From the NCBI GenBank assembly GCA_008080735.1, contig SHMW01000073.1:1-21411 (forward strand): a DNA stretch of 21,411 bases. Direction: 5' to 3'. The notes under the pieces are model-generated. The model saw nothing but the letters and a program-made list of their open reading frames with translations, searched no databases and was not told the origin of the DNA. Position numbers and translations under genes: made by a program. Below are positions 3,302 to 5,625 of this stretch, in pieces; the first letter of the stretch is position 1; each line of letters starts with the position of its first letter. Source of the DNA: Promethearchaeota archaeon. Lineage in GTDB: Archaea > Asgardarchaeota > Lokiarchaeia > Sigyniarchaeales > SOKP01.

Positions 3302-4642
3302 GTGGAGAGTAAATATTTGAAAACTATCGCTTCTCTGAGCTATTTCCATCGTAAGATTGGTCCAATTGTATTCTATGCCTATCCAGAAGACTTATTGGAA
3401 GAGCAATTATCAACAAGAATTGCAAATATAATGGATCAACAATTTTCAGAGGGGTTTTTTACACATTCATTTGAAGAAACAATAACTATGAATTATTACT
3501 TTGAGATTCAATCAGATTGGGCACGTGGAAATAATGATATGCTGATGATATCAATTATCTTTGATGAACAAACAGATATAAAAGTAGAAGAAAAGATACA
3601 AGACTTATGTATTGAATTTTCAGACAAATTAAAATCGAATGAAGATATATATACCGCCTTTTATATCAGCGATTTGAATAATTTTAACCGAGAGGAACAG
3701 GAGAAGATAGTCAAGAATAACGAATTAGTTAAGCTATGGGTGCGAGAGTTATATTGGGCATCAGTAGAAGTAACCAGACAGAAAACTGAAGAGGAAAGAT
3801 TAGCTGAATTGCTAAGCGAGAAATATGTCTTTCTTACACTAAGAAAGCTCTCAAAAGGCCCTTTACCACTTGAATGGATGAAAGAATGGTTCCAAGATAA
3901 TTTTCCAAAAAAGAATTTTGACGAGACGATTGAAACATTAGCGGAAAAACAATTAATTTTCATTAATCAAATCGGAATTGTAGAAAAATATATTCTTCTT
4001 TTAAAAGAGGTTAATGCTGAACGTATACCTCCAGATAGCGTTATAGAATATATTGACGAAACTCCAGAGCTAATAGATCTAATTCTCCCAAAGGTACAAA
4101 AATATTTCAGCAAATATGAAACCAAAACTGAAGAAGAATTAGAAGAGGATTCGTTTTTGTTATTTCAAATTATTTCAGACCCCAAAAAATATAATGTATT
4201 ATCTGAATTGAGAAACGGTCTCATTCCGCGAGACAAACTTCCAAAGCTAGTTTCTAAACGAAATTTAGATGCTTTAAGTAAGGTTTTAAACTTTCTTAAA
4301 GAACATGATATAATTGAGGAACTCAAGTTTAAAAATGAGAGATATATTGTGCTAAAAACTAATTTACAAGTTACAACGGCGTTTCCAGAATATCTAAGAA
4401 AATTATTGCCAAAAGAGGCTAAACCCGTCGTAGCGGACAAATATAATCCAAAAACCCCAGAACGAAAAATGCAAAAAGAAATTGCTGAGATTTTAAAAGA
4501 TGTTAGAAATAAAGGAACTAAAAAAACTAAAGAAGAAAAAATAAGTGATTTTCTAGAAGATTTGGCCACGAAAAATCCTGAAAACTCATTATCAAATAAA
4601 TATTCAAATTTAGATAAAAAAGAAAAGAGAATGAATAAATAA
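3302..4642 (+). CDS. Longin/uDENN-like domain protein (NPRL2/folliculin-like N-terminus) with tandem winged-helix-like C-terminal domains
   Basis: N-terminal LSYFHRKIGPIVFYAYP resembles NPRL2-type F-x-x-x-x-GP-x5-P. It has 'WARG' followed by a hydrophobic strand (MLMISIIF), two wHTH-like segments (…LRKLSKGP…LAEKQLI; …LSELRNG…LKEHDII) and a charged tail. Confidence 0.65.
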   Translation: MESKYLKTIASLSYFHRKIGPIVFYAYPEDLLEEQLSTRIANIMDQQFSEGFFTHSFEETITMNYYFEIQSDWARGNNDMLMISIIFDEQTDIKVEEKIQDLCIEFSDKLKSNEDIYTAFYISDLNNFNREEQEKIVKNNELVKLWVRELYWASVEVTRQKTEEERLAELLSEKYVFLTLRKLSKGPLPLEWMKEWFQDNFPKKNFDETIETLAEKQLIFINQIGIVEKYILLLKEVNAERIPPDSVIEYIDETPELIDLILPKVQKYFSKYETKTEEELEEDSFLLFQIISDPKKYNVLSELRNGLIPRDKLPKLVSKRNLDALSKVLNFLKEHDIIEELKFKNERYIVLKTNLQVTTAFPEYLRKLLPKEAKPVVADKYNPKTPERKMQKEIAEILKDVRNKGTKKTKEEKISDFLEDLATKNPENSLSNKYSNLDKKEKRMNK

Positions 4643-4672: not shown

Positions 4673-4939
4673 ATGCCGAAAAAAGAGATAAAAAATGATT
4701 TAGAAGAAGATTTAAAATATCTTTTAGGTACCTTGGGGATCGAAATCTTCTATTCTATAGAAAGAGGGGCAAGAAACGATGAAACAATAAAACTATTTTC
4801 GGGAATCCCTATTGTATGTATAAAAGGGAGAATCCCAGTTTTGGTTGGACTTAATCTAATAGAGAAAAAGAACAAGGAGTATTATTTGACTAAGAAAGGT
4901 CAGAGATTTAAAAATTTGTTGGAAAGAGAAGAAAGATAA
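4673..4939 (+). CDS. Small winged-helix protein
   Basis: 88 aa. The C-terminal LVGLNLIEKKNKEYYLTKKG is the classic wHTH wing (YxLTxxG). Confidence 0.7.
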   Translation: MPKKEIKNDLEEDLKYLLGTLGIEIFYSIERGARNDETIKLFSGIPIVCIKGRIPVLVGLNLIEKKNKEYYLTKKGQRFKNLLEREER

Positions 4940-4953
4940 TTAAATTGATTTGG

Positions 4954-5030
4954 AGGCATCAGATTGGGGCAACATTTTCATTGCTATGAGCAATAGCTCT
5001 TTTAAATTGTCACAAGATCATCATCTGCCT
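4954..5030 (-). ncRNA. C/D-box guide sRNA (snoRNA-like), predicted to guide 2'-O-methylation of 23S rRNA G2251 (E. coli numbering)
   Basis: Minus strand reads AGGCA-g-ATGATGA (box C, 5024-5018) … AATGTTGCCCCAAT-CTGA (box D, 4962-4959)-TGCCT. A 5-bp terminal stem AGGCA/TGCCT brackets the boxes. There is an internal hairpin GCTAT/ATAGC and an upstream BRE/TATA-like element. It is intergenic. Confidence 0.75.
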
Positions 5031-5060: not shown

Positions 5061-5078
5061 CAATATAAAACTATTTCT
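5061..5078 (-). promoter_or_regulatory. Putative BRE-TATA promoter (AGAAATAG-TTTTATA) of the C/D sRNA
   Basis: A purine-rich element followed by TTTTATA, 34-40 nt upstream of the sRNA terminal stem on the same strand. Confidence 0.4.
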
Positions 5079-5148: not shown

Positions 5149-5625
5149 TTATTTATTATTCTGTTCGGATTTTTGATTATAATAATATTTTCTAATATAA
5201 TAACCGGGTTCTTTAAAACCCCCGCTTTCTTTTATGAGAGTTCTTAGGCCTTCTTTTTTATCCAATTTTCTATTAATGGTCTCATATTCTTGGGGGGTTA
5301 TTTCTCCTCTCCCCAAAAGATAATCTAATATTTCCTTAGCCTCTTTTTTTGTAGAACATCTTCTTATAAAGTGAATCGCTTTAGGGTCAGATAGATCATC
5401 TAATTTAGATTCAGAGCCTTCTTTTTTCTTTTCGTTTTTTTCCGAGCCTTCAACCTCGTAATCAATAGATTCTATTTGAATAGATTTCTTTTTATTTTCT
5501 ATTTCATCCATTAGATGAGGCAAAAACTGGTTCAACTCATCTCTATCATATGAGACATTCAATCCGTCTTCTCTATTGACCTTTGCATCATTAAATTCGT
5601 TATCCTTTTCTGATTTTTCATTCAT
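5149..5625 (-). CDS. DUF2095-like archaeal protein
   Basis: 'FLPHLMDEI', 'P.AIHFIRRCST..EA.EILDYL..RGEIT' and 'KEPGYY' match the archaeal DUF2095 pattern. Confidence 0.75.
   Translation of the reverse strand: MNEKSEKDNEFNDAKVNREDGLNVSYDRDELNQFLPHLMDEIENKKKSIQIESIDYEVEGSEKNEKKKEGSESKLDDLSDPKAIHFIRRCSTKKEAKEILDYLLGRGEITPQEYETINRKLDKKEGLRTLIKESGGFKEPGYYIRKYYYNQKSEQNNK

Follow-up and report, generated by a model that had tools for sequence, protein, structure and literature searches.

A conserved box C/D guide RNA gene of Loki-type Asgard archaea with predicted 2'-O-methylation targets in the P-loop and helix 89 of 23S rRNA

We analyzed a stretch of 21,411 nucleotides of Asgard archaeal DNA (contig SHMW01000073.1; here called the window) and found a box C/D element of about 77 nt on the minus strand at positions 5030-4954, inside a gap free of open reading frames. 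The element is a real, so far unannotated C/D guide RNA gene of a Loki-type Asgard archaeon. The initial annotation, made from the letters of the window alone, had proposed an unannotated C/D-box sRNA here, and conserved boxes and guides together with covarying stems show that this call was correct. Judging by its two guides, the RNA probably directs 2'-O-methylation of G2251 in the P-loop and of U2460 in helix 89 of 23S rRNA (Escherichia coli numbering), both next to the catalytic center of the ribosome, acting through L7Ae, Nop5, and fibrillarin. The gene is conserved among relatives, its stems covary, its guides covary with their targets, and the genes for the protein partners are present in the host. 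The RNA is of a known kind, and its job is already known in other archaea and in eukaryotes; its layout is unusual, though not unprecedented.

The minus-strand letters between 5030 and 4954 confirmed the claim of perfect boxes C and D closed by a 5-bp stem. Read 5' to 3' on the minus strand, the element and the region directly upstream contain the following features.

5062..5070, minus strand: TATA-like element UUUUAUAUU, upstream of the stem by 32-40 nt; the closest relative (G006) retains it
5026..5030, minus strand: 5' arm of the terminal stem, AGGCA, pairing with 4958-4954
5018..5024, minus strand: box C, AUGAUGA, invariant in the 15-sequence alignment
5006..5017, minus strand: D' guide, UCUUGUGACAAU, pairing with the 5' strand of 23S helix 89 (E. 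coli 2456-2466)
5002..5005, minus strand: 4-nt insert UUAA separating the D' guide from the D' box, bringing the spacer to 16 nt
4998..5001, minus strand: D' box, AAGA, immediately 5' of the internal hairpin
4983..4997, minus strand: internal hairpin, GCUAU-UGCUC-AUAGC, closing the putative C'/D' K-turn
4975..4981, minus strand: C' box, AUGAAAA, with its AUGA invariant in 15 orthologs
4963..4974, minus strand: D guide, UGUUGCCCCAAU, pairing with the 23S P-loop (E. coli 2249-2257)
4959..4962, minus strand: box D, CUGA, invariant
4954..4958, minus strand: 3' arm of the terminal stem, UGCCU, covarying with 5030-5026

The interior between box C and box D measures 55 nt. When G5025 and box C are set opposite box D, the letters can be read as a 3-nt bulge followed by tandem G.A pairs, which would give the geometry of a K-turn. 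The internal motif appears to be built in a similar way: directly 3' of the hairpin, A4982, A4981, and U4980 (AAU) make a 3-nt bulge that is followed by GA, and the D' column pair is GA (NNGA) in 14 of the 15 orthologs. Tandem sheared pairs would be formed between the GA of the D' box and that of C'. The usual archaeal form of the C'/D' motif is a K-loop; here it would be replaced by a K-turn that has the hairpin as its canonical stem. The spacer from C' to D is exactly 12 nt long, the canonical length and the one typical of archaeal sRNPs. The spacer from C to D' is 16 nt long in the window, compared with 11-14 nt in most other lineages; the UUAA insert is found in the window's genus, in g3, and in part of g2 and is missing from most other lineages.

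The thermodynamic fold alone was unremarkable (z = -1.3), as is normal for C/D RNAs. We considered, by eye, an alternative internal fold (GAGC/GCUC) and rejected it, since the changes seen in genome G016 compensate each other in the GCUAU/AUAGC hairpin and not in the alternative. The hairpin loop itself, UGCUC (4988-4992, minus strand), with the core GCUC, hardly varies within family f1 even though it is a loop. Compared by eye with the rRNA near both targets, it offered at most 4 bp, which is not meaningful.

To see how far the element extends among relatives, we used the whole 209-nt gap as a blastn query against 60 genomes. Beyond the closest relative, only query positions 122-192, that is, window positions 5027-4957, were conserved. 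In an alignment of 15 orthologs from ten genera, box C, box D, the AUGA of C', and both guide cores were invariant. Across the terminal stem and the internal hairpin, 97.3% of cells were paired and 8 of 10 pairs had changes on both sides; none of 500 shuffles scored as high, and slid controls were 29-53% paired. In the terminal stem, compensatory changes were observed at all five pairs (15 orthologs), and at least four of the five pairs were kept in 48 of 53 distinct orthologs. The internal hairpin had compensatory changes at three of its five pairs (G-C to A-U, C-G to U-A, and U-A to C-G), with 98.7% of cells paired, and was reduced to 2-3 bp in family f2.

Building a covariance model had been suggested in the initial annotation, and the model that we built found exactly one match per genome in 61 of 101 relatives, identifying single-copy orthologs. 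By family, it matched 49 of 60 genomes in f1, 10 of 14 in f2, and the one genome in f3, with no match in families f4-f19. A strict pattern (box C, helix 89 guide, P-loop guide, and box D, in that order) was tried on 400 genomes of the phylum and matched 121, exclusively in f1-f3, which are three families of one order; the reversed control pattern had 0 matches. As judged by these searches, the sRNA gene is single-copy and conserved in one Promethearchaeia order. Boxes and guide alike are conserved in relatives, which is what the initial annotation had made its call depend on.

We searched the host metagenome-assembled genome (MAG; 93% complete) for 23S and 16S rRNA and found neither. Pairing was consequently computed on the 23S of relatives only, using fragments from three same-genus genomes and sequences from many family members, with full rRNA sets from G030 (f1) and G044 (f2). 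The P-loop of the same genus reads GCUGGGGCGGCU, and nucleotides 3 to 11 of the D guide (nt3-nt11) pair with its GCUGGGGCGGC in 9 contiguous pairs (7 Watson-Crick and 2 G.U), with an additional G.U at nt1. The P-loop assignment thus withstands the check set in the initial annotation, which had counted fewer than ~9 bp against it. The guide nucleotide nt4 lies opposite G2250 and nt5 opposite G2251; nt5 is C4967, and position 4967 is indeed the fifth nucleotide upstream of box D, as claimed. In G003, a genome of the same genus, nt8 is mismatched.

Ranked on single sequences, the P-loop was not the unique best match for the D guide: 23S positions 2445-2453 also form 9 bp in the window's lineage, and 23S ~287 and 16S ~670 and ~952 scored as well in single genomes. 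On the full rRNA set of G044, the P-loop was the top-ranked site. We accepted the P-loop reading on the basis of the comparison across lineages. At nt9, 38 of 53 distinct orthologs have C and 13 have U, and either nucleotide pairs with G2255. In three orthologs nt6 is U, and a G.U pair with G2252 is retained. At nt2 the guide has A or G in f1 (target C2248) and C in f2 (target G2248). The nucleotide opposite G2251 is nt5 in nearly all orthologs, and the D side keeps its exact 12-nt spacer. The sites at 23S ~287 (G030) and at 16S ~670 and ~952 (G044) were rejected because they are unconserved in lineages that keep the guide. The proposal that the D guide points to G2251 in the P-loop is therefore supported, with guide variation tracking the P-loop across three families.

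The remaining site, 2445-2453 (GGGGUAACA), deserves a closer comparison. In the window's lineage the D guide might target G2446 in the peptidyl-transferase ring, besides or in place of G2251, although we consider this unlikely. With same-genus 23S, the G2446 site forms 9 bp (8 Watson-Crick and 1 G.U) at -15.4 kcal/mol, against -17.4 kcal/mol for the P-loop. Only 2 nt separate its end from the D' target, which follows on its 3' side, so that one sRNA would cover one continuous rRNA stretch; we put the probability of such proximity arising by chance at about 1%, as a post hoc estimate. By our own calculation with an offset of +369, the yeast equivalent of G2446 is Gm2815, a target of snR38 (PMC5699541). 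However, the match exists only when nt9 of the guide is U, as in 13 of the 53 distinct orthologs. In most of f1 and in every sampled member of f2 and f3, nt9 is a C, which clashes with the universally conserved A2450 of the site, and the energies then become -19.4 kcal/mol for the P-loop and -11.6 kcal/mol for 2445-2453. Restricted in this way to nt9 = U, the G2446 match seems to have arisen secondarily, as a side effect of a C-to-U change without consequence for P-loop pairing. The initial annotation had asked whether another RNA would match the guide better than the P-loop does: none does so compatibly across lineages, but G2446 is nearly as good in this lineage. That in the window's genus one guide serves two sites of the catalytic center, G2251 and G2446, seems rather unlikely; eukaryotes carry Gm at both.

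We consider it highly improbable that the guides act on a target other than rRNA (tRNA or mRNA) or that the box motifs arose by chance in a nonfunctional spacer. The host rRNA is absent from the MAG, and short guides always match something by chance, which leaves some room for both ideas. Against the first, the D guide formed no uninterrupted run of at least 8 pairs with any host tRNA within the set predicted by aragorn, which is incomplete (only 12-26 tRNAs), and the rival rRNA sites are unconserved in other lineages. As for the second, order-wide conservation combined with the covariation of the stems and of guide and target excludes a chance motif.

Three observations made along the way concern the rRNA sequences and one group of orthologs. 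The partial "16S" L037 (G006:C106:3345-4170) starts like a bacterial 16S (GAGTTTGATCCTGGCTCAG...). Its contig is, by its sequence, probably a contaminant in the bin of the same-genus genome G006, and L037 was left out of the target calls. Nearly all sampled Promethearchaeia 23S sequences (L039-L061) have GGGGGUAACAG in place of the GGGGAUAACAG found in E. coli and most archaea, which places a G at the position of E. coli A2448 in the peptidyl-transferase ring; Nanoarchaeum has the same G at this position in the alignment of Dennis et al. (PMC4644070). Finally, the g9 orthologs (G014/G024; L104-L105) have an extra A before box D as well as a 2-nt insert. In their D guide, nt5 has moved from G2251 to G2250 and pairing is down to 7 bp, and the g9 copy may be drifting or retargeted.

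On the D' side, the guide pairs with the 5' strand of same-genus helix 89 (GUUGUCACGAG; 2456-2466) over 11 bp at -14.2 kcal/mol, and helix 89 was the top-ranked D'-guide site on the nearest full rRNA set. Changes in the target are mirrored in the guide: in f3, U2458C in the target is matched by A to G in the guide, and in f2, A2465G is matched by U to C. If 12-nt spacing is assumed, U2460 faces nt5 (A5010) in every lineage. The 16-nt spacer in the window makes the exact D' target nucleotide uncertain, and measuring from the K-turn would put G2456 at nt5. In the window's genus, methylation from the D' guide may fall on G2456 instead, may work inefficiently, or may have given way to a purely chaperone-like pairing.

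A chaperone role has been proposed for dual-guide sRNAs in general. Applied here, the C/D RNP would mainly aid rRNA folding by holding the strands of the P-loop and helix 89 while the ribosome is assembled, and methylation would play a minor part or none, at least on the D' side. Orthologs differ in their D' spacer (11 to 16 nt), and the D' duplex requires a bulge of 1-2 nt in several lineages, both of which would fit selection on pairing rather than on a fixed methylation register. The D side, in contrast, keeps its exact spacer and its nt5 on G2251 in nearly all orthologs, and methylation at G2251 is conserved across all domains (PMC11542601). We therefore hold a predominantly chaperone function to be improbable and prefer guided methylation as the main role of the RNA.

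Under guided methylation, L7Ae would bind two K-turns, the terminal C/D motif and the internal C'/D' motif closed by the 5-bp hairpin, and the resulting complex of RNA and L7Ae would recruit Nop5 and fibrillarin. The D guide (4974-4963) would then pair with the P-loop, where fibrillarin would 2'-O-methylate G2251, and the D' guide (5017-5006) would pair with the 5' strand of helix 89, placing U2460 at the fifth position. We infer that the gene is transcribed, that the RNP is assembled, and that the methylations are made. In the host, the fibrillarin and nop5 genes are adjacent on contig C1 (PF01269 and PF01798), and an L7Ae gene is present on C9 (PF01248). A methylase of the SpoU/RlmB type (PF00588) had no match in the 93%-complete host MAG, while 14 of 14 control genomes were matched.

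The genomic neighborhood of the sRNA is conserved as well. In the window, the gap lies between the stop of a DUF2095 ORF (5625..5149, minus strand; Pfam E = 1.4e-11) and a convergent 88-aa HTH ORF (4673..4939, plus strand). The latter is winged-helix-like and adjoins the sRNA throughout the order. In f1, the gene order ORF446, HTH, sRNA, and DUF2095 was found in 28 of 30 loci, and the synteny downstream of DUF2095 that the initial annotation had suggested looking for thus holds within the family. In f2 and f3, the sRNA still lies beside the HTH gene, on the same strand and downstream of it, and is inverted relative to its orientation in f1. This inversion suggests that the sRNA gene is an independent unit with a promoter of its own. 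The TATA-like element upstream of the stem is a possible candidate for this promoter, in a region that is AT-rich; a scan for sigma-70 promoters and terminators was uninformative for an archaeon.

The 446-aa ORF next to the sRNA locus (3302-4642, plus strand) had no Pfam match. It is 52-83% identical in almost all family members and ~38-43% identical in f2/f3, and it is a conserved Asgard protein without assigned function. A crude genome-wide scan of the host for C/D RNAs returned 4 candidates versus 0 in a reversed control, with settings too strict for a census. The three further C/D-like candidates in the host genome (G000) are located at C3:83447-83501 (minus strand), C6:34240-34291 (plus strand), and C50:8326-8396 (plus strand). 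Two of them are compact (52-55 nt), as in the archaeal layout, and one is 71 nt long with a long interior.

Gm2251 is among the few rRNA modifications common to the three domains, and it is made by a protein enzyme in bacteria and with a snoRNA in eukaryotes. For Asgard archaea, the predicted route is a conserved single-copy sRNA in a MAG without a detectable RlmB-type enzyme. The known mechanism is left unchanged by this finding. In the literature that we searched, we found no catalogue of Asgard C/D RNAs, and the alignment and covariance model obtained here provide a well-supported seed for annotating them. In E. coli, RlmB, a stand-alone methyltransferase of the SpoU family, makes Gm2251 (PMC11542601). 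RlmB introduces the same modification at the same nucleotide as proposed here, but as a protein-only enzyme.

The initial annotation had further described the RNA as a counterpart, possibly a homolog, of yeast snR67 and human U31. We take human SNORD31 (U31) to be the guide for the P-loop Gm (28S Gm4196). As a functional counterpart the RNA stands: snR67/SNORD31 and the Asgard sRNA share the same target nucleotide and the enzyme system of a fibrillarin/Nop1 RNP. Homology, on the other hand, is without support from Rfam. At gathering thresholds, Rfam had no match in the window. With relaxed thresholds, 19 of 21 weak matches fell in families of C/D snoRNAs, over the full length and with the strand correct, and all were below threshold. 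The best were to unrelated plant and yeast C/D families (snoR72 with 26 bits versus a threshold of 43 and snR60/Z15 with 25 versus 41), and neither SNORD31 nor snR67 was matched up to E = 10.

The equivalents of G2251 are Gm2619 in yeast 25S and Gm4196 in human 28S rRNA (PMC11542601). Yeast snR67 guides both Gm2619 and Um2724, and yeast has no Nm at the equivalent of U2460 (PMC5699541). The second targets thus differ, being Um2724 for snR67 and the helix 89 site for the Asgard sRNA. The size of the Asgard sRNA (~77 nt) and the stem inside its C'/D' region are nevertheless eukaryote-like.

A closer parallel for the pair of targets is found in Sulfolobus acidocaldarius. Sac-sR110 is a C/D sRNA identified by RNA-seq in this species and published without a predicted target ("NP NP") (Dennis et al. 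2015, PMC4644070). We computed that its D' guide pairs with the P-loop of S. acidocaldarius over 11 bp, with nt5 on G2251 (-23.0 kcal/mol), and that its D guide pairs with the helix 89 strand over 8 bp, with nt5 on U2460 (-15.4 kcal/mol). Predicted targets can now be assigned to Sac-sR110, which had been published without any. Like the Asgard sRNA, Sac-sR110 combines in one RNA a guide for the P-loop and another for helix 89, each setting nt5 on the nucleotide that its Asgard counterpart also addresses. The two guides have exchanged places, however, with the P-loop at D' and helix 89 at D, and Sac-sR110 measures 56 nt, has a short linker in its C'/D' region, and lacks the internal hairpin of the Asgard sRNA. 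The likeness may reflect common descent or convergence, between which guides of 12 nt cannot decide.

We consider it rather unlikely, though worth stating, that the pair of guides for G2251 and U2460 is ancestral to Asgard archaea and Thermoproteota (Sac-sR110) and that snR67/SNORD31 descend from it. If true, this would be one of very few guide RNA lineages that can be traced across the boundary between archaea and eukaryotes, and the stem-closed internal K-turn and relaxed spacer would be intermediate steps toward snoRNA architecture. Independently of descent, the hairpin-closed K-turn, the variable D' spacing, and the inversion of the gene offer comparative material on a loosening toward snoRNA-like forms.

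Guides to the two sites have also been reported or predicted in other archaea. For 3 of 7 archaea, an sRNA is predicted to target the equivalent of G2251, consensus G2520 (PMC4644070), and in Haloarcula marismortui the corresponding Gm1950 is attributed to aFIB plus an sRNA (PMC11542601, Table 1). Consensus U2734, which by our own reading of the offset in the supplementary alignment equals E. coli U2460, is the predicted target of sR17 and sR132 in two other archaea (PMC4644070). These guides have different second targets, G2520 being combined, for example, with U2544 and U2734 with G2768. The other archaeal P-loop and helix 89 sRNAs also have a compact layout of 50-60 nt, in contrast to the ~77 nt of the Asgard sRNA.
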